Assembly: GCA_964016885.1 (NCBI GenBank)
Contig: OZ024742.1
Location: 371,132,001-371,196,000, forward strand
Origin: Eledone cirrhosa
Taxonomy: Eukaryota
DNA: 64,000 nucleotides
Reading direction: 5' to 3'
Positions within the stretch are counted from its first letter, which is position 1. Every line of letters begins with the position of its first letter. The notes under the pieces were generated by a model. The model did not search any database. It saw only the letters and a program-made list of their open reading frames with translations, and was not told the origin of the DNA. This document shows positions 22,418 through 64,000 of this stretch, one piece after another. The position numbers were made by a program, and so were the translations under genes.

Positions 22418-22421
22418 TTAA

Positions 22422-28870: not shown

Positions 28871-28880
28871 AAGACATTAA

Positions 28881-34129: not shown

Positions 34130-34591
34130 CCCTTTTGATACCAACTTGCCTGAAATTGCTCCTAGTTCTGTATATTTTAAAGTGTGTATATTTATCTAAA
34201 AACCTTCTCTCATAATTTTATGTAAGAACCTTTGTTCCAAACATCAGTTTAATAATAAGAAAGTTATAATATCAAATCCCGCTTGATTATTTTCAAAATG
34301 ATTTAAAAATCATAGGCAGTATCTTTCATTAGAAATATGGTAATGAAAGGGTTAATGACATAGACAGTGTCTTTCATTAGAAATATGGTAATGAAAGGGT
34401 TAATGACATAGACAGTGTCTTTCATTAGAAATATGGTAATGAAAGGGTTAATGACATAGACAGGGTCTTTCGTTAGAAATATGGTAATGAAAGGGTTAAT
34501 GACATAGACAGTGTCTTTCATTAGAAATATGGTAATGAAAGGGTTAATGACATAGACAGGGTCTTTCATTAGAAATATGGTAATGAAAGGG
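34130..34591. mobile_element. piggyBac-like MITE family A with its right terminus amplified to 6 tandem 48-bp copies
   Basis: TTAA|CCCTTTTGATACCAA at 34130. First ...GGTAATGAAAGGG|TTAA at 34351, repeated at 48-bp intervals to 34591. Confidence 0.9.
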
Positions 34592-34689
34592 TTAAAACTG
34601 TTTTGTATTGTAGAATTACGAGCAGTTTAGTATCAAAGTAGCTATAAGGTTTGATGTTGCTTTTATATACTCTTTACTATTTTCTATCT

Positions 34690-35665
34690 ATCTCTTTCTC
34701 TCTCGCTCTCTCTCTCTCGTGCTCACTCCCTCTTTCTCTCTCTCGTGCTCACTCCCTCTTTCTCTCTCTCGTGCTCACTCCCTCTTTCTCTCTCTCGTGC
34801 TCACTCCCTCTTTCTCTCTCTCGTGCTCACTCCCACTTTCTCTCTCTCGTGCTCACTCCCACTTTCTCTCTCTCGTGCTCACTCCCACTTTCTCTCTCTC
34901 GTGCTCACTCCCACTTTCTCTCGTGCTCACTCCCTCTTTCTCTCTCTCGTGCTCACTCCCACTTTCTCTCTCTCGTGCTCACTCCCACTTTCTCTCTCTC
35001 TCGTGCTCACTCCCTCTTTCTCTCTCTCTCGTGCTCACTCCCTCTTTCTCTCTCTCTCGTGCTCACTCCCTCTTTCTCTCTGTCGTGCTCACTCCCTCTT
35101 TCTCTCTCTCTCGTGCTCACTCCCTCCTTCTCTCTCTCGTGCTCACTCCCTCTTTCTCTCTCTCGTGCTCACTCCCTCTTTCTCTCTCTCGTGCCCACTC
35201 CCTCTTTCTCTCTCTCGTACTCACTCCCTCTTTCTCTCTCTCGTGCTCACTCCCTCTTTCTCTCTCTCGTGCTCACTCCCACTTTCTCTCTCTCGTGCTC
35301 ACTCCCACTTTCTCTCTCTCGTGCTCACTCCCACTTTCTCTCGTGCTCACTCCCACTTTCTCTCTGTCGTGCTCTCTCCCTCTTTCTCTCTCTGTCGTGC
35401 TCTCTTTCTCTCTCTCGTGCTCACTCCCTCTTTCTCTCTCTCGTGCTCACTCCCTCTTTCTCTCTCTCGTGCTCACTCCCTCTTTCTCTCTCTCGTGCTC
35501 ACTCCCTCTTTACCTCTCTCGTGCTCACTCCCTCTTTCTCTCTCTCGTGCTCACTCCCTCTTTCTCTCTCTCGTGCTCACTCCCTCTTTCTCTCTCTCTC
35601 GTGCTCACTCCCTCTTTCTCTCTCTCTCGTGCTCACTCCCTCTTTACCTCCCTCACTCTCTCTCT
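34690..35665. repeat. Pyrimidine-rich ~26-bp minisatellite abutting an mTOR splice acceptor
   Basis: Unit CGTGCTCACTCCCTCTTT(CT)n, roughly 35 copies. Confidence 0.95.
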
Positions 35666-35687
35666 TTTTATATATTCTCTATTTCAG

Positions 35688-35786
35688 CCAGCAGTACGAG
35701 AGGCTGCAGTAGCTGCGCTCCGTGCAACCCTTGCTGTCACATCTCAACGAGAGACTAAAAGAGACCACAGTGAAGATTGGTATAAC
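35688..35786 (+). CDS. mTOR: mTOR coding exon 4
   Basis: tttcag acceptor. PAVREAAVAALRATLAVTSQRETKRDHSEDWYN. GTCAGT donor. 33 codons. Confidence 0.95.
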
Positions 35787-35912
35787 GTCAGTATAGCCAG
35801 ATTTTCTTCCGTTTTTTTTTTTTCTTTTTCATTTTTTTACCCCTTTCATCCTTTCTTTATTCTTTTATTTCATTCATTAAACTGTGACAGCCATACTGGA
35901 GCACCACTTTAA

Positions 35913-36130
35913 CCTTTTAGCATTTCCATAACTCTATATTTACTATTGTATTTTCACAGAAAAGGCTTTATCTCATGTTATCTCACATAATATCGAATCT
36001 ATGAGATTTTGATATTATTTATTTTGAGAACAATACCTTAACATCAGTGTGAGCAGTCTGTTATAGCCGGTTTGAACAGAAAGAAGTGAGAGAATTCTGG
36101 CCGGATACGGCTGATTTAAATGCTAATGGG
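35913..36130. mobile_element. piggyBac-like MITE family B
   Basis: TTAA|CCTTTTAGCATTT ... AAATGCTAATGGG|TTAA. The body matches 30315-30502. Confidence 0.8.
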
Positions 36131-36358
36131 TTAAAGTCAATCATATCAACTCCAGTACATTTTTTAATCTTTTTTTATTAAAAAAGATCCCTAGCCTCAA
36201 AATATGAAATAAAAATGTAAATTGTTTTATTTTTCTTCCTTTAGTTTTCACTCTTGTATTTCTAATGTACATTATATCAGCTCTCACTAAACAACCATAA
36301 CCACATATCACGCAATAAACTGTGCTGCTCTGATTTGAGTTTTATTGTTGTTTACCAG

Positions 36359-36493
36359 AATTGTTTGGAAGAAGCCTTGAGACCGTACAGTGATGCTCTT
36401 GCCAAAGAGAAGCGCCTCAACAAGGATGATTGGCTTCATGGATCTTTACTGATAATCAATGAACTTTTACGGTGTAGTAACATGGAAGGAGAG
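36359..36493 (+). CDS. mTOR: mTOR coding exon 5
   Basis: taccag acceptor. NCLEEALRPYSDALAKEKRLNKDDWLHGSLLIINELLRCSNMEGE. GTAGG donor. 45 codons. Confidence 0.96.
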
Positions 36494-36744
36494 GTAGGAT
36501 TTGGGTTTTTTTTTTTTTTTTTACAGGCATTTTTAAAATTCTTTTTCTGGCTTCATTCATTTAACTTGAGCAATGGTGGGTCGCTTGAAGGGTTTTGACC
36601 AGTAATATCAATTCCAGTACTTGTTATTTTTCGAGCTTAATATGTACTTTATCAATATTTTTCAGCAAACTGCTAAGTTATATAAACAGACGTGTAAGCC
36701 CCTTCCTTACACAAACACACGCTCACAACTCGGTTCTAAATTGT

Positions 36745-38240: not shown

Positions 38241-38408
38241 GAATTCTCTCCACGCCGTAGATCCCCTGCCAATACCAGTGGCTTCCAACAACTGCATCAG
38301 AAGTCTCCTTTAATAGTCTTTGATGCAGCTCATACCTCTGCTCCTCAGAAGAGAGGTCTCTTTGAAAGTAGAGTTTGCAAAGAATTAATGACAAAAAACT
38401 ACGACAAG
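38241..38408 (+). CDS. mTOR: mTOR coding exon 7 (not in ORF track)
   Basis: ttttag acceptor. EFSPRRRSPANTSG...GLFESRVCKELMTKNYDK matches vertebrate LVESRCCRDLMEEKFDQ. AAG|GTTTGT donor. 56 codons. Confidence 0.9.
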
Positions 38409-38599
38409 GTTTGTACAATCTAAATTTACTCCCTTTCAACTTAATGGATTATTCTTCACTCACCATGAGCTAAAAAACATTTCATTATAATTCTATGTAA
38501 GAACCTTTAAGCTATACTCCATACACCAGCTTAGTTAATTATTTTACGAAATCCCTCCAAATTCTTGATTAATTTGGAAATTATTTCAAAATCATTGGT

Positions 38600-41500
38600 T
38601 ATATCTTTCTTTAGAAATATGGTAATGAAAATGTTAATGCCATAGTGTCTTTCATTAGAAATATGGTAATGAAAGGGTTAATGACATAGACAGTGTCTTT
38701 GATTAGAAATATGGTAATGAAAGAGTTAATGACATAGACAGTGTCTTTCATTAGAAATATGGTAATGAAAGGGTTAATGACATAGACAGTGTCTTTCATT
38801 AGAAGTATGGTAATGAAAGGGTTAATGACATAGACAGTGTCTTTCATTAGAAATATGGTAATGAAGGGTTAATGACATAGACAGTGTCTTTCATTAGAAA
38901 TATGGTAATGAAAGGGTTAATGACATAAACAGTGTCTTTCTTTAGAAATATGGTAATGAAAGGGTTAATGACATAGACAGTGTCTTTCTTCATTAGAATT
39001 ATGGTAATGAAAGGGTTAATGACATAGACAGTGTCTTTCATTAGAAATATGGTAATGAAAGGGTTAATGACATAGTGTCTTTCATGAGAAATATGGTAAT
39101 GAAAGGGTTAATGACATTGGTAGTGTCTTTCATTAGAAATATGGTAATGAAAGGGTTAATGACACAGTATCTTTCATTAGAAATATGGTAATGAAAGGGT
39201 TAATGACAAAAACAGTGTCTTTCATGAGAAATATGGTAATGGAAGGGTTAATGACATAGACAGTGTCTTTCATTAGAAATATGGTAATGAAAGGGTTAAT
39301 GACATAAAGTGTCTTTCATTAGAAATATGGTAATGAAAGGGTTAATGACATAGACAGTGTCTTTCGTTAGAAATATGGCAATGAAAGGGTTGATGACATA
39401 GTGTCTTTCAGTAGAAATATGGTAATGAAAGGGTTAATGACATAGACAGTGTCTTTCATTAGAAATATGGTAATGAAAGGGTTAATGACATAAACAGTGT
39501 CTTTCATTAGAAATATGGTAATGAAAGGGTTAATGACATAGACAGTGTCTTTCGTTAGAAATATGCTAATGAAAGGGTTAATGACATAAACAGTGTCTTT
39601 CATTAGAAATATGGTAATGAAAGGGTTAATGACGTAGACAGTGTCTTTCATTAGAAATAGGGTAATGAAAGGGTTAATGAGATAGTGTCTTGCATTAGAA
39701 ATATGGTAATGAAAGGGTTAATGACATAAACTGTCTTTCATTAGAAATATGGTAATGAAAGGGTTAATGACATACAGTATCTTTCATTAGAAATATGGTA
39801 ATGAAAGGGTTAATGACATAAACAGTGTCTTTCATTAGAAATATGGCAATGAAAGGGTTAATGACATAGACAGTGTCTTTCAGTAGAAATATGGTAATGA
39901 AAGGTTTAATGACATAGACTGTCTTTTGTTCGAAATATGGCAATGAAAGGGTTAATGACATAGACAGTGTCTTTCATTAGAAATATGGTAATGAAAGAGT
40001 TAATGACATAGTCAGTGTCTTTCGTTAGAAATATGGTAATGAAAGGGTTAATGACATAAATTGTCTTTCTTGAGAAATGTGTTAATGAAAGGGTTAATGA
40101 CATAAACAGTCTCTTTCATAAGAAATATGGTAATGAAGGGTTAATGACATAGACAATGTCTTTCATTAGAAATATGGTAATGAAAGGGTTAATGACAAAG
40201 ACAGTGTCTTTCATTACTCATATGGTAATGAAAGGGTTAATGACATAAACAGTGTCTTTCATTAGAAATATGGTAATGAAAGGGTTAATGACAAAGACAG
40301 TGTCTTTCATTACTAATATGGTAATGAAAGGGTTAATGACGTAGACAGTGTCTTTCATTAGAAATATGGTAATGAAGGGTTAATGACATAGACAATGTCT
40401 TTCATTAGAAATATGGTAATGAAAGGGTTAATGACATAAACTGTCTTTCATAAGAAATATGGTAATGAAAGGGTTAATGACATAAACATGGTCTTTCATT
40501 AGAGATATGGTAATGAAAGGGTTAATGACATAAACATGGTCTTTCATTAGAGATATGGTAATGAAAGGGTTAATGACATAAACAGGATCTTTCATTAGAA
40601 ATATGGTAATGAAAGGGTTAATGACAGAAACAGTGTCTTTCATTAGAAATATGGTAATGAAAGGGTTAATGATATAGTTAGTGTCTTTCATTAGAAATAT
40701 GGTAATGAAAGGGTTAATGACATAAACAGTGTCTTTCATTAGAAATATGGTAATGAAAGGGTTAATGATATAGTCAGTGTCTTTCATTAGAAATATGGTA
40801 ATGAAAGGGTTCATGACATAGACAGTGTCTTTCATTAGAAATATGGTAATGAAAGGGTTAATGACATAGACAGTGTCTTTCATTAGAAATATGGTAATGA
40901 AAGGGTTAATGACATAGACAGTGTCTTTCATTAGAAATATGGTAGTGAAGCATTAATGACATAAACAGTGTCTTTCATTAGAAATATGGTAATGAAAGGG
41001 TTAATGACAAAAACAGTGTCTTTCATTAGAAATATGGTAATGAAAGGGTTAATGACATAGACAGTGTCTTTCATTAGAAATATGGTAATGAAAGGGTTAA
41101 TGACATAAACAGTGTCTTTCTTTAGAAATATGGTAATGAAAGGGTTAATGACATAAACTGTCTTTCATTAGAAATATGGTAATGAAAGGGTTAATGACAT
41201 ACAGTATATTTCATTAGAAATATGGTAATGAAAGGGTTAATGACATAAACAGGGTCTTTCATTAGAAATATGGTAATGAAAGGGTTAATGATATAGACAG
41301 TGTCTTTCATTAGAAATATGGTAATGAAAGGGTTAATGACTTAGACAGTGTCTTTCATTAGAAATATGGTAATGAAAGGGTTGATGACATAGACAGTGTC
41401 CTTCATTAGTAATATGGTAATGAAAGGGTTAATGAAATAGACAGTGTCTTTCTTTAGAAATATGGTAATGAAAGGGTTAATGACATAAAGTGTCTTTCTT

Positions 41501-41785
41501 TAGAAATGTGTTAATGAAAGGGTTAATGACATAAACAGGGTCTTTCATTAGAAATATGATAATGAAAGGGTTAATGACAAACTGTCTTTCATTAGAAATA
41601 TGGTAATGAAAGGGTTAATGACAGTGTCTTTCATTAGAAATATGGTAATGAAAGGGTTAATGACATAAACAGTTGTCTTTCATTAGAAATATGGTAATGA
41701 AAGGGTTAATGACATAGACAGTGTCCTTCATTAGAAATATGGTAATGAAAAGGTTAATGACATAAACAGTGTCTTTCATTAGAAA
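38600..41785. repeat. 48-bp satellite, proximal block
   Basis: Monomer GACATA(G/A)ACAGTGTCTTTCATTAGAAATATGGTAATGAAAGGGTTAAT, preceded by a MITE family A body at ~38480-38600. Confidence 0.98.
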
Positions 41786-44700
41786 TCATCATCATCATCA
41801 TCAGGTTTAGCGTCCGTGTTCCACGCTTGCATGGGTTTGGACGGGGGTTTTCCCACTTGAGGCAAGAGTGGTTGTCTTGCTCGCATAGGACTGTCTGGCG
41901 GGTTTTCTACAGTTGGATGCCCTTCCTAACACCAACCACATTTACAGTGTGGGGCTGGGAGGTTTTTACCGTGTTGCCTACATGGCCACATTACAGCGTG
42001 GACTGTCTGGCGGGTTTTCTACAGCTGGATCCCCTTCCTAACACCAACCACATTTACAGTGTGGGGCTGGGAGGTTTTTACCGTGTTGCCTACACGGCCA
42101 CATTTACAGCGTGGACTGTGTGTTTTTTGTCGTGACACCTACACGATCTCATTTGTTTCGGCCTGGATGTTGTGGGACCAACATAACTTTACATTGAAAG
42201 GGGCGGTGTGGGTGGGGTGGAGGTGGTGGGACGGGGGTGTGTTTTGATAGAGATGCCTACTGACTGTAGTAGGTTTTTACTTTGTATTTAGGTAAGGCGG
42301 GTCTTCTCTATTACTGAGTACCGCCAAAGGTCTCGGTCCAGTGACATTGTCTTGGAGAGGTGTAAGCGTGTGAGGTCGGAATTTATCAGCTCGTCCCATG
42401 TTTTTCTGGGTCTGCCTACTCCGTGGCTACCGTCTATCTTTATTGCCCTGCACTTTGTTATACAGCTGTCGTCTTTCATGCGCATCACGTGACCGTACCA
42501 ACGTAGCCTTCTCTTGAGTAAACATCTGATCCCTCTTATTTCTAATTTTTTCCTTAGTTCGTTTATGCTTTGCCGTTCACGTATATTACTATTGCACATC
42601 CAGCGGAGCATGCAAGCTTCGTTCCTCTCTAGTCTGCGTATATCCTCTGCACACAATGCCCAGGTCTCACTGCCATGCAGCATTGCTGTTCGTATGCAGG
42701 CATCGTATAACCTGCCTTTCATTTTTAGGGAGAACCCTCTAGCGGCTAATAGTGGTATAAGCTCTCTGAACTTTTTCCATCCAGTTCTGACTCTAGCTAC
42801 TGTACTTTCAGAGCACCCTCCCCCACTGCTGATTTTGTCACCCAGATAACGGAAGCTGTCCACTATTTCTATAGAACCCTCTGCGCAGTTGAAGGAGCTA
42901 GTATTTTGTGGGCACTTGCTGCTACTTATTGCACCAGAGCACCGGCCACATGTAAAATCTATGTTCTTAGTTAGCTTACCTGTGATCCCACTACATCTTT
43001 TATGCACCCATACTTTGCATTTGGGACATAAAATGGAGTTTCTACCTACGCCTTTCCTACACACTGAGCATGGCCATTTCCCCGATGGGACCGCCGCCTT
43101 ATTTTCTTTCCTACAAACTAGAACTTTAGTCTTAGCCAGGTTAATTTTAAGGCCTTTTGATTCTAGGCCGTGCTTCCACGTTTGGAATTTCTTCTCTAGT
43201 TCGGTCATTGATTCAGCTATGAGCGTTAGATCATCTGCGTATAGGAGTTCCCATGGGCAGCCGGTCTTGAACTCCTCTGTTATAGCCTGAAGGGCAATAA
43301 TAAATAGTAGGGGGCTAAGTACAGAGCCCTGATGGACACCGACTTTTACGCTAAACTCTTCACTATATTCGTTGTTAATTCTAACCTTACTGACTGTTTC
43401 TTTATACATGGCTTGTATAGCTCTCACAAGCCATTCGTCAACACCTAGTTTTCTAAGAGACCACCAGATAATGGAACGGGGGACTCTGTCGAAGGCTTTC
43501 TCTAAGTCGACAAAAGCTAAGTATAGGGGTTTACTTTTAGCTAGGTACTTCTCCTGTAGTTGTCGTACAATGAAAAGAGCGTCTGTGGTACTTTTGCCTG
43601 ACACAAACCCGAACTGCATTTCATCTAGGTCAATTCTCTCTCTGATTAGTTGCGCTATTACTTTTTCCGTGACCTTCATGACCTGGTCGATTAATTTAAT
43701 GCCTCTATAGTTACTCCTATCTAGGGCATCTCCTTTTCCCTTATAGCAGTTAACGATGATGCTGCTACGCCATTCCTTCGGAACAACCCCATTCTGTACG
43801 ACTTGGTTAACTATCCGGGTGACCATGGTGTGTCCCACCGAACCAGATGCCTTCAGCATCTCAGCAACTATTTCCGAAGGCCCAGCCGCCTTACCCGTCT
43901 TCATATCTTTGATTGCCTTACTTATTATACTACCTTCAACTAACACTGCTGGTCCCTCTATTGGATCGATCTGGGGGAGACTGTATTTCTCCCATTTGTT
44001 CTCCTCATTTAGAAGCCTTTCGTAGTGACACTTCCAAGCTACCTTCTTATCAGCGTCGGTGATGGCAAGTATGCCATCATCGTTAAGTACACACTTCTCC
44101 CCGACAATATCACGGTTTTCCTTGACACATTGCCTGGCAATCCTGAACACCTCACGTTTTTGGTCCTCACGTTGTAGAACATGCTTGAACTTTCTTTCCT
44201 CTGCTTCCCTTCTTGCGAAGTACACTTGTCTCCTAGCTTCCCTCCTGGCCACTTGATAGTCTTCTCTACTTCCCCCATCCCGCCATACTTTCCAAGCCTG
44301 CTTTTTGGCCTTAATTTACCCCTCCACCTTACTGTTCCACCACCATGTTACTCTCCTCCTACCTACAGGCCTGCTCCAGCCACAGACTTCGTCTGCCGCC
44401 GTCAGCAGGTTTGCTCTCAGAAATTCCCACTGTTCCTCTATATTATACGACTCTAATTGCTCTTCCTTACTGTCGAAAGCGTCAAGTAATTTGCTTTGAA
44501 ATTTATTTCTGGCTATGGGGTCCTTTAGCTTCCATATTTTTCTCCTGAGGATAGTCCTCTTCCGCTGTCTAGTACGTCTCGTCCTGACTATGAGGTCGCT
44601 AATTATCAGTCTATGTTGGGAGGTGAATTCTTCATGGGGGTGGGATTTAGTGTTAACAACAGACACTCTGTCACGTCTTCTGGTAAGGATATAATCTACC

Positions 44701-45388
44701 TGGCTTGTGTGTTCCCCTGATCTATAGGTGATCAAGTGATTGTCTCGTTTTTTGAAGTTAGTGTTACAGATAGTTAAGTTATTTGCGTCGCAGAATTCCA
44801 GGATTCTGGAGCCTTCCTCATTTCTAGTACCGAACCCATAGCCTCCATGGATTCCGTCATAGCCGTCACAATGTTGTCCAACGTGACCATTTAGGTCGCC
44901 TGCAATAACTATATAGTCACTGTCGGTTATTTGGGAGGTAGCGAGCATCAGTGTCTCGTAGAATCTGTCTTTTATAGCGCGGGGCAGTCCGGATTGGGGT
45001 GCGTACGCAGATATTACTGTCACCGTAGTTTTATTGAGGACAAGTCTTATTTTAATTATTCTGTCGTTCACTCTATTTACGTCTATTATCTTATCTGCCC
45101 ACTTTTCTGCTACCATGATTCCTACCCCACCCAACCCATTGTCATTTCCCACCCAGAAAAGCTTATAGCATCGTTCTTTACCCACGATGAATCTAGCCGA
45201 CCCTCCCCTCCACCTGGTCTCTTGAATACAACAAACATCGACCTCCTTACGTTCAAGCATTTCTACAACCTCGTTAGAGCGACCCTTTAAGGTGCCTACA
45301 TTCATGGTACCAACTCTGAAGTTTTGGATTGCGTTTGGAGGGTGGGAGCGGGGGGGGGGGGGTTATGTTAGCCATCCTGGGCCGAAAC
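41786..45388 (-). mobile_element. Near-full-length RTE-clade LINE inserted in the satellite
   Basis: APE (MNVGTL, CCIQETRW, SAYAPQ, AGDLNGHVG, QVDYIL, SQH), RT and PHD. 3' UTR with an internal duplication. (TGA)n tail at 41786-41802. The satellite phase resumes at ~45389. Confidence 0.96.
42288..45305 (-). pseudogene. RTE APE-RT ORF with one in-frame premature stop
   Basis: ORFs 44316-45305 and 42288-44252 share a frame. TAA at 44316-44318 corresponds to TCA (Ser) in the sister copy near 13940. Confidence 0.9.
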
Positions 45389-48300
45389 AATATAGTAATA
45401 AAAGGGTTAATGATATAAAGTGTCTTTCTTTAGAAATATGGTAATGAAAGGGTTAATGACACAAACAGTGTCTTTCCTTAGAACTATGGTAATGAAAGGG
45501 CTAATGATATAGTCAGTGTCTTTCATTAAAAAATATGGTAATGAAAGGGTTAATGACATACAGGATATTTCATTAGAAATATGGTAATGAAAGGGTTAAT
45601 GATATAAACAGTTGTCTTTCATTAGAAATATGCTAATGAAAGGGTTAATGACATAAACAGTGTCTTTCTTTAGAAATATGGTAATGAAAGGGTTAATGAC
45701 ATAAACTGTCTTTCATTAGAAATATGGTAATGAAAGGGTTAATGACATACAGTATATTTCATTAGAAATATGGTAATGAAAGGGTTGATGACATAGACAG
45801 TGTCCTTCATTAGTAGTATGGTAATGAAAGGGTTAATGACATAAAGGGTCTTTCTTTAGAAATGTGTTAATGAAAGGGTTAATGACATAAACATCGTCTT
45901 TCATTAGAAATATGGTAATGAAAGGGTTAATGACATAAACAGTGTCTTTCTTTAGAAATATGGTAATGAAAGGGTTAATGACACAAACAGTGTCTTTCCT
46001 TAGAAATATGGTAATGAAAGGGATAATGACATAAACAGGGTCTTTCATTAGAAATATGGTAATGAAAGGGTTAATGACAGTGTCTTTCATTAGAAATATG
46101 GTAATGAAAGGGTTAATGACATAAACAGGGTCTTTCATTAGAAATATGGTAATGAAAGGGTTAATGATATTGACAGTGTCTTTCATTAGAAAGATTATAA
46201 TGAAAGGGTTAATGACATAAACAGTGTCTTTCATTAGAAATATGGTAATGAAAGGGTTAATGACATAGGCAGTGTCCTTCATTAGAAATATGGTAATGAA
46301 AAGGTTAATGACATAAACACTGTCTTTCATTAGAAATATGGTAATGAAAGGGTTAATGACATAGACAATGTCTTTCATTAGAAATATGGTAATGAAAGGG
46401 TTAATGAGTGTCTTTCATTAGAAATATGGTAATGAAAGGGTTAATTACATAGACAGTGTCTTTCATTAGAAATATGGTAATGAAAGGGTTAATGACATAA
46501 ACAGTGTCTTTTATTAGAAATATGGTAATGAAAGGGTTAATGACATAAACAGTGTCTTTCATTAGAAATATGGTAATGAAAGGGTTAATGATATAGTCAG
46601 TGTCTTTCATTAGAAATATGGTAATGAAAGGGTTTATGACATAGACAGTGTCTTTCATTAGAAATATGGTAATGAAAGGGTTAATGACATAAACAGCGTC
46701 TTTCATTAGAAATATGGTAATGAAAGGGTTAATGATATAGACAGTGTCTTTCATTAGAAATATGATAATGAAAGGGTTTATGACATAAACTGTCTTTCAT
46801 TAGAAATATGGTAATGAAAGGGTTAATGACAGTGTCTTTCATTAGAAATATGGTAATGAAAGGGTTAATGACATAAACAGTTGTCTGTCATTAGAAATAT
46901 GGTAATGAAAGAGTTAATGACATAGACCGTGTCTTTCATTAGAAATATGGTAATGAAAGGGTTAATGACATAAACTGTCTTTCATTAGAAATATGGTAAT
47001 GAAAGGGTTAATGACATAAACAGTCTTTCATTAGAAATATGGTAATGAAAGGGTTAATGACATAAACAGTCTTTCATTACAAATATGGTAATAAAGGGTT
47101 AATGACATAAACAGTGTCTTTCATTAGAAATATGGTAATGAAAGGGTTCATGACATAAACAGGGTCTTTCATTAGAAATATGATAATGAAAGGGTTAATG
47201 ACAGTGTCTTTCATTAGAAATATGGTAATGAAAGGGTTAATGAAATAAACAGTTGTCTTTCATTAGAAATATGGTAATGAAAGAGTTAATGACATAAACT
47301 GTCTTTCATTAGAAATATGGTAATGAAAGGGTTAATGACAGTGTCTTTCATTAGAAATATAGTAATGAAAGGGTTAATGACATAAACAGGGTCTTTCATT
47401 AGAAATATGGTAATGAAAGGGTTAATGACAGAAACGGTGTCTTTCATTAGAAATATGGTAATGAAAGGGTTAATGACAGAAACGGTGTCTTTCATTAGAA
47501 ATATGGTAATGAAAGGGTTAATGACAGAAACAGTGTCTTTCATTAGAAATATGGTAATGAAAGGGTTAATGACATAAACAGTGTCTTTCATTAGAAATAT
47601 GGTAATAAAGGGTTAATGACATAAACAGTGTCTTTCATTAGAAATATGGTAATGAAAGGGTTAATGACATAGACAGTGTCTTTCATTAGAAATATGGTAA
47701 TGAAAGGGTTAATGACATAAACAGGGTCTTTCATTAGAAATATGGTAATGAAAGGGTTAATGATATAGACAGTGTCTTTCAGAAGAAATATGGTTATGAA
47801 GGGTTAATGACATAAACAGTGTCTTTCATTAGAAATATAGTAATGAAAGGGTTAATGACATAGACAGTGTCTTTCATTAGAAATATGGTAATGAAAGGGT
47901 TAATGACATAAACTGTCTTTCATTAGAAATATGGTAATGAAAGGGTTAATGACAGTGTCTTTCATTAGAAATATGGTAATGAAAGGGTTAATGACATAAA
48001 CAGTTGTCTTTCATTAGAAATATGGTAATGAAAGAGTTAATGACATAGACAGTGTCTTTCATTAGAAATATGGTAATGAAAGGGTTAATGACATAAACTG
48101 TCTTTCATTAGAAATATGGTAATGAAAGGGTTAATGACATAAACAGGGTCTTTCATTAGAAATATGGTAATGAAAGGGTTAATGACATACAGTATCTTTC
48201 ATTAGAAATATGGTAATGAAAGCGTTAATGACATAAACAGGGTCTTTCATTAGAAATATGGTAATGAAAGGGTTAATGACATAAACAGTGTCTTTCATTA

Positions 48301-51300: not shown

Positions 51301-54300
51301 TTCATGACATAGACAGTGTCTTTCATTAGAAATATGGTAATGAAAGGGTTAATGACATAAACAGTGTCTTTCATTAGAAATATGGTAATGAAGGGTTAAT
51401 GACATAGACAGTGTCTTTCATTAGAAATATGGTAATGAAAGGGTTAATGACAGTGTCTTTCATTAGAAATATGGTAATGAAAGGGTTAATGACATAAACA
51501 GTTGTCTTTCATTAGAAATATGGTAATGAAAGAGTTAATGACATAGACAGTGTCTTTCATTAGAAATATGGTAATGAAAGGGTTAATGACATAAACAGTG
51601 TCTTTCATTAGAAATATGGTAATGAAAGGGTTAATGACATAAACAGGGTCTTTCATTAGAGATATGGTAATGAAAGGGTTAATGACATAAACAGGGTCTT
51701 TCATTAGAAATATGGTAATGAAAGGGTTAATGACATAAACTGTCTTTCATTAGAAATATGGTAATGAAAGGGTTAATGACATAAACAGTGTCTTTCATTA
51801 GAAATATGGTAATGAAAGGGTTCATGACATAGACAGTGTCTTTCATTAGAGATATGGTAATGAAAGGGTTAATGACATAAACAGTGTCTTTCATTAGAAA
51901 TATGGTAATGAAAGGGTTAATGACATAAACAGGGTCTTTCATTAGAAATATGGTAATGAAAGGGTTAATGATATAGACAGTGTCTTTCATAAGAAATATG
52001 GTTATGAAGGGTTAATGACATAAACAGTGTCTTTCATTAGAAATATAGTAATGAAAGGGTTCATGACATAGACAGTGTCTTTCATTAGAAATATGGTAAT
52101 GAAAGGGTTAATGACATAAACAGTGTCTTTCATTAGAAATATGGTAATGAAGGGTTAATGACATAGACAGTGTCTTTCATTAGAAATATGGTAATGAAAG
52201 GGTTAATGACAGTGTCTTTCATTAGAAATATGGTAATGAAAGGGTTAATGACATAAACAGGGTCTTTCATTAGAGATATGGTAATGAAAGGGTTAATGAC
52301 ATAGACAGGGTCTTTCATTAGAAATATGGTAATGAAAGGGTTAATGACATAAACTGTCTTTCATTAGAAATATGGTAATGAAAGGGTTAATGACATAAAC
52401 AGTGTCTTTCATTAGAAATATGGTAATGAAAGGGTTCATGACATAGACAGTGTCTTTCATTAGAGATATGGTAATGAAAGGGTTAATGACATAAACAGTG
52501 TCTTTCATTAGAAATATGGTAATGAAAGGGTTAATGACATAAACAGGGTCTTTCATTAGAAATATGGTAATGAAAGGGTTAATGATATAGACAGTGTCTT
52601 TCATAAGAAATATGGTTATGAAGGGTTAATGACATAAACAGTGTCTTTCATTAGAAATATAGTAATGAAAGGGTTCATGACATAGACAGTGTCTTTCATT
52701 AGAAATATAGTAATGAAAGGGTTCATGACATAGACAGTGTCTTTCATTAGAAATATGGTAATGAAAGGGTTAATGACATAGACAGTGTCTTTCATTAGAA
52801 ATATGGTAATGAAAGGGTTAATGACAGTGTCTTTCATTAGAAATATGGTAATGAAAGGGTTAATGACATAAACAGTTGTCTTTCATTAGAAATATGGTAA
52901 TGAAAGAGTTAATGACATAGACAGTGTCTTTCATTAGAAATATGGTAATGAAAGGGTTAATGACATAAACTGTCTTTCATTAGAAATATGGTAATGAAAG
53001 GGTTAATGACATAAACAGGGTCTTTCATTAGAAATATGGTAATGAAAGGGTTAATGATATAGACAGTGTCTTTCATTAGAAATATGGTAATGAAAGGGTT
53101 TATGACATAGACAGTGTCTTTCATTAGAAATATGGTAATGAAAGGGTTAATGACATAAACAGCGTCTTTCATTAGAAATATGGTAATGAAAGGGTTAATG
53201 ATATAGACAGTGTCTTTCATTAGAAATATGATAATGAAAGGGTTAATGACATAAACTGTCTTTCATTAGAAATATGGTAATGAAAGGGTTAATGACATAA
53301 ACAGTCTTTCATTAGAAATATGGTAATGAAAGGGTTAATGACATAAACAGTCTTTCATTACAAATATGGTAATGAAAGGGTTCATGACATAAACAGGGTC
53401 TTACATTAGAAATATGGTAATGAAAGGGTTCATGACATAGACAGTGTCTTTCATTAGAAATATGGTAATGAAAGGGTTAATGACATAAACAGTGTCTTTC
53501 ATTAGAAATATGGTAATGAAAGGGTTAATGACATAAACAGTGTCTTTCATTAGAAATATGGTAATGAAAGGGGTAATGATATGGTCAGTGTCTTTCATTA
53601 GAAATATAGTAATGAAAGGGTTAATGACATAAACAGGGTCTTTCATTAGAAATATGATAATGAAAGGGTTAATGACAGTGTCTTTCATTAGAAATATGGT
53701 AATGAAAGGGTTAATGAAATAAACAGTTGTCTTTCATTAGAAATATGGTAATGAAAGAGTTAATGACATAGACAGTGTCTTTCATTAGAAATATGGTAAT
53801 GAAAGGGTTAATGACATAAACTGTCTTTCATTAGAAATATGGTAATGAAAGGGTTAATGACAGTGTCTTTCATTAGAAATATAGTAATGAAAGGGTTAAT
53901 GACATAAACAGGGTCTTTCATTAGAAATATGGTAATGAAAGGGTTAATGACGGAAACGGTGTCTTTCATTAGAAATATGGTAATGAAAGGGTTAATGACA
54001 TAAACAGTGTCTTTCATTAGAAATATGGTAATGAAAGGGTTAATGACATAAACAGTGTCTTTCATTAGAAATATGGTAATAAAGGGTTAATGACATAAAC
54101 AGTGTCTTTCATTAGAAATATGGTAATGAAAGGGTTAATGACATAAACAGTGTCTTTCATTAGAAATATGGTAATGAAAGGGTTAATGACATAAACAGTG
54201 TCTTTCATTAGAAATATGGTAATAAAGGGTTAATGACATAAACAGTGTCTTTCATTAGAAATATGGTAATGAAAGGGTTAATGACATAAACAGGGTCTTT

Positions 54301-57300
54301 CATTAGAAATATGGTAATGAAAGGGTTCATGACATAGACAGTGTCTTTCATTAGAAATATGGTAATGAAAGGGTTAATGATATAGACAGTGTCTTTCATA
54401 AGAAATATGGTTATGAAGGGTTAATGACATAAACAGTGTCTTTCATTAGAAATATAGTAATGAAAGGGTTCATGACATAGACAGTGTCTTTCATTAGAAA
54501 TATGGTAATGAAAGGGTTAATGACATAAACAGTGTCTTTCATTAGAAATATGGTAATGAAGGGTTAATGACATAGACAGTGTCTTTCATTAGAAATATGG
54601 TAATGAAAGGGTTAATGACAGTGTCTTTCATTAGAAATATGGTAATGAAAGGGTTAATGACATAAACAGTTGTCTTTCATTAGAAATATGGTAATGAAAG
54701 AGTTAATGACATAGACAGTGTCTTTCATTAGAAATATGGTAATGAAAGGGTTAATGACATAAACAGTGTCTTTCATTAGAAATATGGTAATGAAAGGGTT
54801 AATGACATAAACAGGGTCTTTCATTAGAGATATGGTAATGAAAGGGTTAATGACATAAACAGGGTCTTTCATTAGAAATATGGTAATGAAAGGGTTAATG
54901 ACATAAACTGTCTTTCATTAGAAATATGGTAATGAAAGGGTTAATGACATAAACAGTGTCTTTCATTAGAAATATGGTAATGAAAGGGTTCATGACATAG
55001 ACAGTGTCTTTCATTAGAGATATGGTAATGAAAGGGTTAATGACATAAACAGTGTCTTTCATTAGAAATATGGTAATGAAAGGGTTAATGACATAAACAG
55101 GGTCTTTCATTAGAAATATGGTAATGAAAGGGTTAATGATATAGACAGTGTCTTTCATAAGAAATATGGTTATGAAGGGTTAATGACATAAACAGTGTCT
55201 TTCATTAGAAATATAGTAATGAAAGGGTTCATGACATAGACAGTGTCTTTCATTAGAAATATGGTAATGAAAGGGTTAATGACATAAACAGTGTCTTTCA
55301 TTAGAAATATGGTAATGAAGGGTTAATGACATAGACAGTGTCTTTCATTAGAAATATGGTAATGAAAGGGTTAATGACAGTGTCTTTCATTAGAAATATG
55401 GTAATGAAAGGGTTAATGACATAAACAGTTGTCTTTCATTAGAAATATGGTAATGAAAGAGTTAATGACATAGACAGTGTCTTTCATTAGAAATATGGTA
55501 ATGAAAGGGTTAATGACATAAACTGTCTTTCATTAGAAATATGGTAATGAAAGGGTTAATGACATAAACAGGGTCTTTCATTAGAAATATGGTAATGAAA
55601 GGGTTAATGACATACAGTATCTTTCATTAGAAATATGGTAATGAAAGCGTTAATGACATAAACAGGGTCTTTCATTAGAAATATGGTAATGAAAGGGTTA
55701 ATGATATAGACAGTGTCTTTCATTAGAAATATGGTAATGAAAGGGTTTATGACATAGACAGTGTCTTTCATTAGAAATATGATAATGAAAGGGTTAATGA
55801 CATAAACAGCGTCTTTCATTAGAAATATGGTAATGAAAGGGTTAATGATATAGACAGTGTCTTTCATTAGAAATATGATAATGAAAGGGTTAATGACATA
55901 AACTGTCTTTCATTAGAAATATGGTAATGAAAGGGTTAATGACAGTGTCTTTCATTAGAAATATGGTAATGAAAGAGTTAATGACATAGACAGTGTCTTT
56001 CATTAGAAATATGGTAATGAAAGGGTTAATGACATAAACTGTCTTTCATTAGAAATATGGTAATGAAAGGGTTAATGACATAAACAGTCTTTCATTAGAA
56101 ATATGGTAATGAAAGGGTTAATGACATAAACAGTCTTTCATTACAAATATGGTAATAAAGGGTTAATGACATAAACAGTGTCTTTCATTAGAAATATGGT
56201 AATGAAAGGGTTCATGACATAAACAGGGTCTTACATTAGAAATATGGTAATGAAAGGGTTCATGACATAGACAGTGTCTTTCATTAGAAATATGGTAATG
56301 AAAGGGTTAATGACAGTGTCTTTCATTAGAAATATGGTAATGAAAGGGTTAATGACATAAACAGTTGTCTTTCATTAGAAATATGGTAATGAAAGAGTTA
56401 ATGACATAGACAGTGTCTTTCATTAGAAATATGGTAATGAAAGGGTTAATGACATAAACTGTCTTTCATTAGAAATATGGTAATGAAAGGGTTAATGACA
56501 TAAACAGGGTCTTTCATTAGAAATATGGTAATGAAAGGGTTAATGACATACAGTATCTTTCATTAGAAATATGGTAATGAAAGCGTTAATGACATAAACA
56601 GGGTCTTTCATTAGAAATATGGTAATGAAAGGGTTAATGACATAAACAGTGTCTTTCATTAGAAATATGGTAATGAAAGGGTTAATGACATAAACAGGGT
56701 CTTTCATTAGAAATATGGTAATGAAAGGGTTAATGACATAGTCAGTGTCTTTCATTAGAAATATGGTAATGAAAGGGTTCATGACATAGACAGTGTCTTT
56801 CATTAGAAATATGGTAATGAAAGGGTTAATGACATAAACTGTCTTTCATTAGAAATATGGTAATGAAAGGGTAAATGACAGTGTCTTTCTTTAGAAATAT
56901 GGTAATGAAAGGGTTAATGATATAGACAGTGTCTTTCATAAGAAATATGGTTATGAAGGGTTAATGACATAAACAGTGTCTTTCATTAGAAATATAGTAA
57001 TGAAAGGGTTCATGACATAGACAGTGTCTTTCATTAGAAATATAGTAATGAAAGGGTTCATGACATAGACAGTGTCTTTCATTAGAAATATGGTAATGAA
57101 AGGGTTAATGACATAGACAGTGTCTTTCATTAGAAATATGGTAATGAAAGGGTTAATGACAGTGTCTTTCATTAGAAATATGGTAATGAAAGGGTTCATG
57201 ACATAGACAGTGTCTTTCATTAGAAATATGGTAATGAAAGAGTTAATGACATAGACAGTGTCCTTCATTAGAAATATGGTAATGAAAAGGTTAATGACAT

Positions 57301-60300
57301 AAACGGTGTCTTTCATTAGTAATATGGTAATGAAAGGGTTAATGACATAGACAGTGTCTTTCGTTAGAAATATGGCAATGAAAGCGTTAATGAAATAGAC
57401 AGTCTTTCTTGAGAAATATGGTAATGAAAGGGTTAATGACATAAAGTGTCTTTCTTGAGAAATATGGTAATGAAAGGGTTAATGACATAAACTGTCTTTC
57501 ATTAGAAATATGGTAATGAAAGGGTTATTGACAGTGTCTTTCATTAGAAATATGGTAATGAAAGGGTTAATGACATAAACAGGGTCTTTCATTAGAGATA
57601 TGGTAATGAAAGGGTTAATGACATAAACAGGGTCTTTCATTAGAAATATGGTAATGAAAGGGTTAATGACATAAACAGTGTCTTTCATTAGAAATATGGT
57701 AATGAAAGGGTTCATGACATAAACAGTGTCTTTCATTAGAAATATGGTAATGAAAGGGTTAATGACATAAACTGTCTTTCATTAGAAATATGGTAATGAA
57801 AGGGTTAATGACATAAACAGTGTCTTTCATTAGAAATATGGTAATGAAAGGGTTCATGACATAAACAGGGTCTTTCATTAGAAATATGGTAATGAAAGGG
57901 TTAATGACATAAACAGTGTCTTTCATAAGAAATATGGTTATGAAGGGTTAATGATATAGACAGTGTCTTTCATAAGAAATATGGTTATGAAGGGTTAATG
58001 ACATAAACAGTGTCTTTCATTAGAAATATAGTAATGAAAGGGTTCATGACATAGACAGTGTCTTTCATTAGAAATATAGTAATGAAAGGGTTCATGACAT
58101 AGACAGTGTCTTTCATTAGAAATATGGTAATGAAAGGGTTAATGACATAAACAGTGTCTTTCATTAGAAATATGGTAATGAAGGGTTAATGACATAGACA
58201 GTGTCTTTCATTAGAAATATGGTAATGAAAGGGTTAATGACAGTGTCTTTCATTAGAAATATGGTAATGAAAGGGTTAATGACATAAACAGTTGTCTTTC
58301 ATTAGAAATATGGTAATGAAAGAGTTAATGACATAGACAGTGTCTTTCATTAGAAATATGGTAATGAAAGGGTTAATGACATAAACTGTCTTTCATTAGA
58401 AATATGGTAATGAAAGGGTTAATGACATAAACAGGGTCTTTCATTAGAAATATGGTAATGAAAGGGTTAATGATATAGACAGTGTCTTTCATTAGAAATA
58501 TGGTAATGAAAGGGTTTATGACATAGACAGTGTCTTTCATTAGAAATATGGTAATGAAAGGGTTAATGACATAAACAGCGTCTTTCATTAGAAATATGGT
58601 AATGAAAGGGTTAATGATATAGACAGTGTCTTTCATTAGAAATATGATAATGAAAGGGTTAATGACATAAACTGTCTTTCATTAGAAATATGGTAATGAA
58701 AGGGTTAATGACAGTGTCTTTCATTAGAAATATGGTAATGAAAGAGTTAATGACATAGACAGTGTCTTTCATTAGAAATATGGTAATGAAAGGGTTAATG
58801 ACATAAACTGTCTTTCATTAGAAATATGGTAATGAAAGGGTTAATGACATAAACAGTCTTTCATTAGAAATATGGTAATGAAAGGGTTAATGACATAAAC
58901 AGTCTTTCATTACAAATATGGTAATGAAAGGGTTCATGACATAAACAGGGTCTTACATTAGAAATATGGTAATGAAAGGGTTCATGACATAGACAGTGTC
59001 TTTCATTAGAAATATGGTAATGAAAGGGTTAATGACATAAACAGTGTCTTTCATTAGAAATATGGTAATGAAAGGGTTAATGACATAAACAGTGTCTTTC
59101 ATTAGAAATATGGTAATGAAAGGGGTAATGATATGGTCAGTGTCTTTCATTAGAAATATAGTAATGAAAGGGTTAATGACATAAACAGGGTCTTTCATTA
59201 GAAATATGATAATGAAAGGGTTAATGACAGTGTCTTTCATTAGAAATATGGTAATGAAAGGGTTAATGAAATAAACAGTTGTCTTTCATTAGAAATATGG
59301 TAATGAAAGAGTTAATGACATAGACAGTGTCTTTCATTAGAAATATGGTAATGAAAGGGTTAATGACATAAACTGTCTTTCATTAGAAATATGGTAATGA
59401 AAGGGTTAATGACAGTGTCTTTCATTAGAAATATAGTAATGAAAGGGTTAATGACATAAACAGGGTCTTTCATTAGAAATATGGTAATGAAAGGGTTAAT
59501 GACGGAAACGGTGTCTTTCATTAGAAATATGGTAATGAAAGGGTTAATGACATAAACAGTGTCTTTCATTAGAAATATGGTAATGAAAGGGTTAATGACA
59601 TAAAAGTGTCTTTCATTAGAAATATGGTAATAAAGGGTTAATGACATAAACAGTGTCTTTCATTAGAAATATGGTAATGAAAGGGTTAATGACATAAACA
59701 GTGTCTTTCATTAGAAATATGGTAATGAAAGGGTTAATGACATAAACAGTGTCTTTCATTAGAAATATGGTAATAAAGGGTTAATGACATAAACAGTGTC
59801 TTTCATTAGAAATATGGTAATGAAAGGGTTAATGACATAAACAGGGTCTTTCATTAGAAATATGGTAATGAAAGGGTTCATGACATAGACAGTGTCTTTC
59901 ATTAGAAATATGGTAATGAAAGGGTTAATGACATAAACAGTGTCTTTCATTAGAAATATGGTAATGAAAGGGTTAATGACATAAACAGGGTCTTTCATTA
60001 GAGATATGGTAATGAAAGGGTTAATGACATAAACAGGGTCTTTCATTAGAAATATGGTAATGAAAGGGTTAATGACATAAACTGTCTTTCATTAGAAATA
60101 TGGTAATGAAAGGGTTAATGACATAAACAGTGTCTTTCATTAGAAATATGGTAATGAAAGGGTTCATGACATAGACAGTGTCTTTCATTAGAGATATGGT
60201 AATGAAAGGGTTAATGACATAAACAGTGTCTTTCATTAGAAATATGGTAATGAAAGGGTTAATGACATAAACAGGGTCTTTCATTAGAAATATGGTAATG

Positions 60301-63300
60301 AAAGGGTTAATGATATAGACAGTGTCTTTCATAAGAAATATGGTTATGAAGGGTTAATGACATAAACAGTGTCTTTCATTAGAAATATAGTAATGAAAGG
60401 GTTCATGACATAGACAGTGTCTTTCATTAGAAATATGGTAATGAAAGGGTTAATGACATAAACAGTGTCTTTCATTAGAAATATGGTAATGAAGGGTTAA
60501 TGACATAGACAGTGTCTTTCATTAGAAATATGGTAATGAAAGGGTTAATGACAGTGTCTTTCATTAGAAATATGGTAATGAAAGGGTTAATGACATAAAC
60601 AGTTGTCTTTCATTAGAAATATGGTAATGAAAGAGTTAATGACATAGACAGTGTCTTTCATTAGAAATATGGTAATGAAAGGGTTAATGACATAAACTGT
60701 CTTTCATTAGAAATATGGTAATGAAAGGGTTAATGACATAAACAGTCTTTCATTAGAAATATGGTAATGAAAGGGTTAATGACATAAACAGTCTTTCATT
60801 ACAAATATGGTAATAAAGGGTTAATGACATAAACAGTGTCTTTCATTAGAAATATGGTAATGAAAGGGTTCATGACATAAACAGGGTCTTACATTAGAAA
60901 TATGGTAATGAAAGGGTTCATGACATAGACAGTGTCTTTCATTAGAAATATGGTAATGAAAGGGTTAATGACAGTGTCTTTCATTAGAAATATGGTAATG
61001 AAAGGGTTAATGACATAAACAGTTGTCTTTCATTAGAAATATGGTAATGAAAGAGTTAATGACATAGACAGTGTCTTTCATTAGAAATATGGTAATGAAA
61101 GGGTTAATGACATAAACTGTCTTTCATTAGAAATATGGTAATGAAAGGGTTAATGACATAAACAGGGTCTTTCATTAGAAATATGGTAATGAAAGGGTTA
61201 ATGACATACAGTATCTTTCATTAGAAATATGGTAATGAAAGCGTTAATGACATAAACAGGGTCTTTCATTAGAAATATGGTAATGAAAGGGTTAATGACA
61301 TAAACAGTGTCTTTCATTAGAAATATGGTAATGAAAGGGTTAATGACATAAACAGGGTCTTTCATTAGAAATATGGTAATGAAAGGGTTAATGACATAGT
61401 CAGTGTCTTTCATTAGAAATATGGTAATGAAAGGGTTCATGACATAGACAGTGTCTTTCATTAGAAATATGGTAATGAAAGGGTTAATGACATAAACTGT
61501 CTTTCATTAGAAATATGGTAATGAAAGGGTAAATGACAGTGTCTTTCTTTAGAAATATGGTAATGAAAGGGTTAATGACATAAACAGTGTCTTTCATTAG
61601 AGATATGGTAATGAAAGGGTTAATGACATAAACAGGGTCTTTCATTAGAAATATGGTAATGAAAGGTTTAATGACATACAGGATATTTCATTAGAAATAT
61701 GGTAATGAAAGGGTTAATGACATAAAGAGGGTCTTTCATTAGAAATATGGTAATGAAAGGGTTAATGATATAGACAGTGTCTTTCATTAGAAATATGGTA
61801 ATGAAAAGGTTAATGACATAAACAGTGTCTTTCATTAGAAATATGGTAATGAAAGGGTTCATGACATAGACAGTGTCTTTCATTAGAAATATGGTAATGA
61901 AAGAGTTAATGACATAGACAGTGTCCTTCATTAGAAATATGGTAATGAAAAGGTTAATGACATAAACGGTGTCTTTCATTAGTAATATGGTAATGAAAGG
62001 GTTAATGACATAGACAGTGTCTTTCGTTAGAAATATGGCAATGAAAGCGTTAATGAAATAGACAGTCTTTCTTGAGAAATATGGTAATGAAAGGGTTAAT
62101 GACATAAAGTGTCTTTCTTGAGAAATATGGTAATGAAAGGGTTAATGACATAAACTGTCTTTCATTAGAAATATGGTAATGAAAGGGTTATTGACAGTGT
62201 CTTTCATTAGAAATATGGTAATGAAAGGGTTAATGACATAAACAGGGTCTTTCATTAGAGATATGGTAATGAAAGGGTTAATGACATAAACAGGGTCTTT
62301 CATTAGAAATATGGTAATGAAAGGGTTAATGACATAAACTGTCTTTCATTAGAAATATGGTAATGAAAGGGTTAATGACATAAACAGTGTCTTTCATTAG
62401 AAATATGGTAATGAAAGGGTTCATGACATAGACAGTGTCTTTCATTAGAGATATGGTAATGAAAGGGTTAATGACATAAACAGTGTCTTTCATTAGAAAT
62501 ATGGTAATGAAAGGGTTAATGACATAAACAGGGTCTTTCATTAGAAATATGGTAATGAAAGGGTTAATGATATAGACAGTGTCTTTCATAAGAAATATGG
62601 TTATGAAGGGTTAATGACATAAACAGTGTCTTTCATTAGAAATATAGTAATGAAAGGGTTCATGACATAGACAGTGTCTTTCATTAGAAATATAGTAATG
62701 AAAGGGTTCATGACATAGACAGTGTCTTTCATTAGAAATATAGTAATGAAAGGGTTAATGACATAAACAGTGTCTTTCATTAGAAATATGGTAATGAAGG
62801 GTTAATGACATAGACAGTGTCTTTCATTAGAAATATGGTAATGAAAGGGTTAATGACAGTGTCTTTCATTAGAAATATGGTAATGAAAGGGTTAATGACA
62901 TAAACAGTTGTCTTTCATTAGAAATATGGTAATGAAAGAGTTAATGACATAGACAGTGTCTTTCATTAGAAATATGGTAATGAAAGGGTTAATGACATAA
63001 ACTGTCTTTCATTAGAAATATGGTAATGAAAGGGTTAATGACATAAACAGGGTCTTTCATTAGAAATATGGTAATGAAAGGGTTAATGATATAGACAGTG
63101 TCTTTCATTAGAAATATGGTAATGAAAGGGTTTATGACATAGACAGTGTCTTTCATTAGAAATATGGTAATGAAAGGGTTAATGACATAAACAGCGTCTT
63201 TCATTAGAAATATGGTAATGAAAGGGTTAATGATATAGACAGTGTCTTTCATTAGAAATATGATAATGAAAGGGTTAATGACATAAACTGTCTTTCATTA

Positions 63301-64000
63301 GAAATATGGTAATGAAAGGGTTAATGACAGTGTCTTTCATTAGAAATATGGTAATGAAAGAGTTAATGACATAGACAGTGTCTTTCATTAGAAATATGGT
63401 AATGAAAGGGTTAATGACATAAACTGTCTTTCATTAGAAATATGGTAATGAAAGGGTTAATGACATAAACAGGGTCTTACATTAGAAATATGGTAATGAA
63501 AGGGTTCATGACAGTGTCTTTCATTAGAAATATGGTAATGAAAGGGTTAATGACATAAACAGTGTCATTCATTAGAAATATGGTAATGAAAGGGTTAATG
63601 ACATAAACAGTGTCTTTCATTAGAAATATGGTAATGAAAGGGGTAATGATATGGTCAGTGTCTTTCATTAGAAATATAGTAATGAAAGGGTTAATGACAT
63701 AAACAGGGTCTTTCATTAGAAATATGATAATGAAAGGGTTAATGACAGTGTCTTTCATTAGAAATATGGTAATGAAAGGGTTAATGAAATAAACAGTTGT
63801 CTTTCATTAGAAATATGGTAATGAAAGAGTTAATGACATACACAGTGTCTTTCATTAGAAATATGGTAATGAAAGGGTTAATGACATAAACTGTCTTTCA
63901 TTAGAAATATGGTAATGAAAGGGTTAATGACAGTGTCTTTCATTAGAAATATAGTAATGAAAGGGTTAATGACATAAACAGGGTCTTTCATTAGAAATAT
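45389..64000. repeat. 48-bp satellite, distal block with higher-order duplications (runs off the window)
   Basis: Same monomer with 42-49 bp length variants. Variant patterns recur at multi-kb offsets. Confidence 0.99.

Follow-up and report, generated by a model that had tools for sequence, protein, structure and literature searches.

A giant satellite built from a piggyBac-type MITE terminus in an mTOR intron of Eledone cirrhosa, and its possible spread onto relic MITE ends

Introduction

Satellites derived from transposable elements (TEs), including those built from terminal repeats and from MITEs (miniature inverted-repeat transposable elements), are treated in reviews (PMC12628747, PMC9659126). 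In the Xenopus families Xstir/Xmix and miDNA4, the models presented have arrays arising or growing inside a MITE and moving with it (PMC12628747, PMC9659126). For the Rsp-like satellite, which entered 1.688 clusters in Drosophila simulans and mauritiana, interlocus conversion or reintegration of extrachromosomal circular DNA (eccDNA) was proposed (PMC7403614). The Cast satellites of Tribolium castaneum form long arrays dispersed in gene-rich regions, with exchange within and between chromosomes, and eccDNA and transposition were proposed for their spread (10.1101/2023.04.24.538079). Here, we describe a 48-bp satellite from Eledone cirrhosa whose unit is the right end of a TTAA-bounded MITE, termed MITE-A, and which occupies most of an intron of mTOR. 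The locus lies in a stretch of 64,000 nucleotides of assembly GCA_964016885.1 (contig OZ024742.1, positions 371,132,001 to 371,196,000), referred to as the window; positions are relative to it, and values above 64000 lie in the adjoining assembly downstream.

How a satellite comes to a new locus has been hard to settle, as the site that received it is rarely known. In this system, the recipient is defined: it is a 45-bp end of which the genome has many scattered, dated copies that keep their original target duplication. Empty and filled ends stand side by side, so seeding, conversion, and co-transposition could be separated through orthologous insertions in close species.

Results

The satellite monomer derives from the right end of an old piggyBac-type MITE

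MITE-A is a non-coding element of ~255 bp bounded by TTAA, and 30 loci were found with the body of the copy at position 34130. Its inverted termini match at 11 of 14 terminal bases and begin with CCC, a piggyBac-type terminal motif. The genome holds 610 strict right ends and 4208 first-look candidates. The copy at 34130 has inserted into an older copy on the opposite strand, at a TTAA inside that copy, and removing the insertion restores the single internal TTAA of the host. Because the host is itself MITE-A, the family sequence shows what the empty site looks like, and the TTAA duplication is directly visible. MITE-A is an old TTAA-targeting element, decayed by ~15%.

The 48-bp monomer comprises a 3-bp junction, usually TGA, followed by the 45-bp right end of MITE-A including its TTAA. 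A preliminary description of the window had equated the monomer with the MITE terminus. Our data agree for the 45 bp of the right end; the first three bases (TGA) do not occur in MITE-A at that place. The monomer can fold into a hairpin with a 9-bp stem (-5.5 kcal/mol, z -3.0), which is perfect in the TG form and contains one mismatch in the ancestral CG form. We also considered a tandem mini-transposon, with a complete element in each monomer, and rejected it, as the unit starts with TGA after TTAA and contains the right end only.

The piggyBac-family origin suggested in the preliminary description was supported by a genome search for PF13843. This search gave 125 matches, of which 30 loci were fetched; seven of these are elements of 2.5-2.6 kb that share the MITE-A right terminus. 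Their terminal 26 bp equal the monomer end except for one CpG, and aligning their right ~150 bp to MITE-A gives roughly 75%. The seven copies are 1.3-3.3% off the column majority, with a longest open frame of 448 aa, and one of them (L229) lies ~100 kb downstream of the window. The piggyBac at 31114-33019 was tried as the MITE-A partner and rejected, since its ends belong to another family.

A second tandem form consists of the right ~190 bp of MITE-A, from an internal TTAA to the terminal TTAA (L005, L017, L084, L102). Its TTAA-to-TTAA junction would fit self-insertion by a transposase better than that of the 48-mer does.

Young shared units stand on old, mutually distant MITE bodies

To compare the ages of arrays and single ends, array and solo loci were selected with the same 21 fixed positions, and divergence was scored at 28 terminal positions free of the pattern. 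The bodies at the same loci served as the control for local rate. Compared with solo loci, we noticed no significant difference in body divergence (14.1% at array loci, 25 of 30 alignable, versus 15.2% at solo loci, 25 of 29 alignable; p=0.70). In contrast, the terminal units of arrays diverged by only 4.4% (37/840) against 15.9% (129/812) for solo ends (p=2e-8), and later units by 3.2%. The result of young units on old bodies holds with 41 arrays. The local majority unit is the common unit in 27 of 42 arrays, and even arrays of three to seven units (L063, L080) differ from it by at most 1% on bodies diverged by 16-19%. At one site, the A:G ratio was 35:11 in second units versus 4:25 in solo ends (p=1e-7). 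Young shared units on bodies that are old and distant from one another require either copying between loci or selection.

Under selection, the units would be old and held similar, for instance because a domesticated transposase binds them. Dimers in two more distant organisms, with 6-7 differences in 99-119 bases, would be in line with this, weakly, as each comes from a single contig. The best PF13843 match of the genome (L219, C2:234.4 Mb) has an open frame of 597 aa and no inverted ends detected within 1.5 kb, and is possibly a domesticated piggyBac-derived gene. Nevertheless, solo ends, whose sequence is the same, show a neutral rate of decay, arrays accept unit lengths of 42, 46, and 49 bp along with many substitutions, and the chromosome-specific variants described below require copying. 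We therefore regard selection as a very improbable explanation.

Right-end arrays share their junction genome-wide

The exact monomer junction has 12,363 matches in the genome and none for the reversed control, which excludes chance. As the exact pattern catches only 228 of 1,424 and 489 of 1,780 units in two arrays, the family may total, as a rough estimate, 45,000-77,000 monomers. One array on C2 exceeds 86 kb, so the mTOR array is not unique. Further large arrays lie at C2:22.34-22.43, 24.83-25.12, and 410.02-410.06 Mb, at C3:368.78 Mb, and at C1:435.9 Mb, several of them toward chromosome ends.

A second unit follows 46 of the 610 strict right ends, 28 of these on C20-C27; an apparent depletion of arrays on C1 was not significant (1/56 ends versus 45/554 elsewhere, p=0.11). 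The expectation that arrays elsewhere would be anchored to a MITE body at the same end proved correct for most C1 arrays chosen by the junction alone: 11 of 15 start directly on a body, two within 330 bp of one, and two lack it. In a C2 sample of 12 array pieces, only four have a body directly at their start.

The right-end junction is TGA or AGA, and its length is 3 bp in 11/11 anchored arrays where 2-5 were permitted. A 4-bp ACAA junction, giving a 49-bp unit, has 555 matches, and C2 accounts for 99 of the first 100 listed. All four body-anchored ACAA arrays are on C2; their bodies differ from one another by 15-28%, and they contain few TGA junctions. A search for junctions of 5-30 bp returned no other form, as its four matches are all deleted TGA-type units. 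Fold-back synthesis of TGA at every event was considered and rejected: L206 keeps TGA without a template, so the junction is not formed de novo each time. A fold-back origin in the first event is possible.

Tandem left ends served as a control. Nine such loci have nine different units of 29-55 bp; of the six inspected, two are clearly MITE-A sequence and the others probably related elements. Differing units of this kind are what truly independent events look like. Two separate satellites derive from piggyBac-type left ends, with a 29-bp unit in at least 100 copies (L264, C2:414.33 Mb) and a 44-bp unit in at least 42 copies (L269, C18:17.76 Mb).

These data bear on the proposal, made in the preliminary description, that the terminus amplified repeatedly and independently. 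The left-end loci, each with its own unit, show that termini of this kind do so occasionally, whereas right-end arrays share the junction, the young units, and the A allele. Independent self-duplication of each right end, aided by transposase or hairpin and with a junction dictated by sequence, could still draw on the monomer hairpin and the left-end loci, on two-unit loci with identical private variants (L083, L206), and on the 26 of 45 private bases common to units 1 and 2. However, it predicts units diverged by ~16% and mostly of G type, and we found ~4% and mostly A type. A chromosome-specific junction is likewise incompatible with one dictated by sequence, and events that are truly independent yield differing periods. 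These data largely refute such an origin of the right-end arrays, which is very improbable.

Array edges retain old bases

Next, we examined the edges of closed arrays (37 for divergence, 52 for the flush-end count). Divergence is 10.5% in the first third of unit 1 and 8.8% in the last third of the last unit, versus 1.8% in the last third of the penultimate unit. CG or CA, the ancestral or decayed CpG, was found in 8/37 last units, versus 4/374 inner units (p=8e-7) and 1/37 first units. Of the 52 closed arrays, 41 terminate flush at GGGTTAA when one mismatch is allowed. This edge pattern fits the trace expected of monomers inserted inside an old end.

Bodies of array-bearing copies are no closer to one another than to solo bodies (array-array 23.1% versus array-solo 23.3%; 30 array and 43 solo bodies), and the body tree has 24 label changes versus 23.3 when shuffled. 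No body column significantly marks array-bearing copies in 179 tests. As the tree is star-like, this lack of clustering is weak evidence. A body subfamily seen as a single clade with support 1.0 was rejected, having no diagnostic column. Local turnover is strong. In four public runs, contigs of relatives at array sites end inside the terminal unit.

A possible but less favored explanation is that a master MITE with an already tandem end spread in an old burst, with transposase cutting at the outer unit, and that conversion from large arrays keeps the units young. The shared junction, the arrays flush at TTAA, and the old bases at their edges agree with it, as do a fully ancestral-type array at C3:32.16 Mb and the star-like bodies. 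So do the diverged outer two units of the giant mTOR array and its terminal TTTA, shared with a related organism; a tandem left end is also reported to have increased piggyBac activity in cells (PMC7351741). Conversely, the bodies under the ACAA arrays, which are restricted to C2, are unrelated, and hardly any TGA junctions occur at the edges of these arrays. Moreover, neither second nor penultimate units are older than inner ones, even the arrays of three to seven units named above are young on old bodies, and no variant marks the array-bearing bodies.

A 71-kb mTOR intron consists almost entirely of the satellite and one LINE

The assignment of the host gene to mTOR in the preliminary description was confirmed by two exons (Table 1). 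A third, immediately before the array, gave no PDB match on its own and is assigned from its borders, its open frame, and its neighbors. The 3' end of the array lies ~50 bp upstream of an AG followed by an open exon, which has a weak collinear TOR2 match (E 0.86). The intron from 38410 to 109597, 71.2 kb of nearly nothing but satellite and one long interspersed nuclear element (LINE), is well supported from genomic sequence alone.

Tandem Repeats Finder delimits three blocks of the 48-bp unit in the window (Table 1). We counted 463 monomers there, close to the ~450 first given. An array of more than 25 kb had been described; the 25.4-kb span agrees with this, but it is split by a 3.6-kb LINE, which leaves 21.8 kb of satellite, and the array is larger beyond the window. 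In total, it has 1,423 units running through 109545 without N gaps. As described before, a MITE body near 38480 runs directly into the array, although its left end is missing. The outer two units are diverged and the terminal TTAA is mutated to TTTA. The mutated terminal bases and flank at the far end also occur in contigs from a related organism, where the contig stops inside a unit; that MITE end is therefore older than the split of the two organisms.

The array contains 210 distinct monomer variants in many nested higher-order blocks, and homogenization within and between arrays is evident. One block of 10,752 bp is repeated exactly (lag 228 monomers), which may be a very recent or an assembly duplication and leaves the array length uncertain by ~11 kb. 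This repeat is what would suggest that the whole array is an assembly artifact. The variants and their nested order, the inserted LINE, the absence of N gaps, the exon-compatible borders, and the existence of other arrays of at least 86 kb all argue against it, as does a short-read contig, possibly from the source sample, that connects the last array junction with the following exon and shows 0 differences over 352 bp. An artifact is thus highly improbable.

Table 1. Features of the mTOR locus in window coordinates
Feature	Position	Strand	Remarks
mTOR exon	29221..29454	+	matches human residues 93-168
mTOR exon	36362..36493	+	matches human residues 238-280
Likely mTOR exon preceding array	38242..38409	+	AG/GT borders, open frame; neighboring exons mTOR
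Complete MITE-A copy (CCC...GGG), six right-end units	34130..34591	+	TTAA at 34126-34129 and 34592-34595
Tandem Repeats Finder block	34311..34595		5.9 copies, 97%
Reference 48-bp monomer	34356..34403	+	3-bp junction + 45-bp right end; palindrome beside terminal GGG-TTAA
Older MITE-A copy, host of 34130 insertion	34054..34129	-	remainder ~34596-34640
5'-truncated MITE-A body anchoring giant array	38473..38636	+	consensus 86-255; diverged first unit
Giant array, block one	38604..41786	+	67 monomers (Tandem Repeats Finder)
LINE inside array	41787..45388	-	endonuclease, reverse transcriptase, PHD finger; frame interrupted near 44316; tail of (ATG)n
Giant array, block two	45389..64000	+	395 monomers in window; extends to 109545
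Decayed nearly full MITE-A, solo right end	28878..29089	-	
Two MITE-A fragments, right ends sharing one TTAA at ~23147	23010..23220	undefined	
Short right-end fragment	22023..22050	-	
Short right-end fragment	33696..33720	-	

The MITE-A copies in this gene are separate old insertions, variously decayed, two of which carry arrays. Four loci (28877, 23147, 22023, and 33696) had been listed as single ends; all contain MITE-A right-end sequence, but they are a nearly full copy, a pair sharing one TTAA, and two short fragments. Nothing orders the copies into a series, and the earlier idea of successive stages in one gene is abandoned.

The complete MITE with six end units at 34130 stands as first described, with TTAA on both sides and 5.9 copies of the unit. 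Its added units are near the consensus and carry a rare GGG variant, present in 171 units of the neighboring giant array and in 9 of ~1,140 units at 70 other loci. One added unit is a double variant found nine times in the C2 array. The closest sequences to the added units have four mismatches in 240 bp (C2 array) and seven (neighboring giant).

Other repeats around the gene

The LINE that splits the array is nearly intact, with frames of 348 and 675 aa, the PHD finger lying within the reverse transcriptase frame, and its target duplication is at most ~3 bp. Upstream of the array, a decayed, frameshifted piggyBac (PF13843) occupies 31110-33023 and has TTAA ends of a family other than MITE-A. 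Elsewhere, nearly identical copies have open frames of 561 aa (L220-L225), and its ends are shared by short elements at 22210-22422, 30312-30503, and 35908-36135.

Unrelated tandem arrays start a few bases from the right end of MITE-A or of its piggyBac partner at 28450-28870 (34 bp x12.6), 120680-146106 (42 bp x606), and L245:3508-3664 (39 bp x4). By hidden Markov model distance, 2 of 40 arrays are placed in this way (~0.5 expected); a third was found by eye, and there were none at left ends. These counts are only suggestive. More unrelated minisatellites lie at 2145-4808, 34709-35645, 147883-151233, 173209-175477, and 178668-184000 (57, 26, 32, 30, and 42/126 bp). The region around the gene is generally prone to tandem expansion.

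Discussion

Together, these data lead us to lean towards a single satellite lineage that was copied in trans onto pre-existing MITE-A ends and then expanded locally. A single early duplication would have created the junction, and the 49-bp form would have arisen separately or derived from the 48-bp form. The 45 bp of identity between the monomer and a relic end could let several monomers enter it, either through homology-directed repair or through crossing over with a circular form of the satellite; the first unit would then begin with old bases, and the last would finish with them. Each array would afterwards be homogenized by slippage and unequal exchange and would grow, to 71 kb in the present case. 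Ordinary breaks, the small hairpin, and nicking by a related transposase are candidate triggers.

Several observations weigh against copying in trans. In the C2 sample, 8 of 12 array pieces have no body closer than 330 bp, and insertions have split several of them. The solo controls of the age comparison come from C1 only, and the arrays mostly from C20-C27. The edge pattern also fits old arrays whose outermost half-units escaped conversion, and a 45-bp end that was old throughout would produce a larger edge excess than the one observed. The star-like body tree is compatible with an array-bearing master element. The private bases of first units that recur in second units count here as well, and L083, L123, L206, and L207 carry private variants from end to end. 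No donor was found for the five added units at 34356-34595, nor any five-unit match. Finally, 45 bp is short for homologous recombination, and we saw neither a circle nor a break nor an empty orthologous end.

It is conceivable, but in our assessment rather unlikely, that the sequence behaves as a homing satellite, in which the related piggyBac transposase nicks relic ends and repair from existing arrays writes in monomers. The partner piggyBac copies are about as old as the array units, judging by their distance from the column majority. If this were true, each array would supply more transposase ends and more donor template, and dead transposon copies across the genome would serve as targets at which satellite arrays are seeded in introns.

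However the units arrived, the 71-kb mTOR intron, mostly satellite, illustrates one route by which large introns grow; no effect on the gene has been demonstrated.

Satellites derived from TEs and the seeding of satellites between loci are both known, and the landing of a satellite on the relic ends of its own parent element appears to be new within the literature searched. In open-licence PMC and bioRxiv articles, without supplements, we found neither a report of such landing on MITE ends nor a paper on this satellite, although it may have an entry in a repeat library. For Octopus vulgaris, a repeat annotation describes recent piggyBac and MITE activity, and the first third of that article does not mention such a satellite (PMC13282606).

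Among known systems, the piggyBac superfamily is like MITE-A in its TTAA duplication, short asymmetric inverted ends, near-end palindrome, and PF13843 partners; MITE-A differs in being non-coding and old (PMC7351741). The Tetris TIR-220 satellite of Drosophila virilis likewise comes from the terminal inverted repeat (TIR) of a non-autonomous DNA transposon. Tetris, however, is a foldback element with internal repeats in its TIR, whereas the MITE-A end is single in most copies (PMC4079207, PMC9659126). Cast arrays are described as ending without a regular pattern (10.1101/2023.04.24.538079), whereas here the MITE fixes the phase of both ends.

In Xenopus, a satellite is derived from or rides in a MITE, and MITE, array, and MITE-plus-array forms coexist (PMC12628747, PMC9659126), as we observed for MITE-A. 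The unit described here differs in being the outermost end including TTAA, and the bodies are about four times as old as the units. The closest parallel is the Rsp-like satellite, with young, nearly identical units at old dispersed loci, shared junction types, and spread along one chromosome (PMC7403614); young shared units and junctions at old recipient loci are also found in our data. The Rsp-like recipient is another satellite, entered through 4-7 bp of microhomology and with a variable far junction (PMC7403614). In the satellite of E. cirrhosa, by comparison, the recipient is the relic end of the parent transposon itself, the homology extends over 45 bp, and the far end mostly coincides with the original TTAA.

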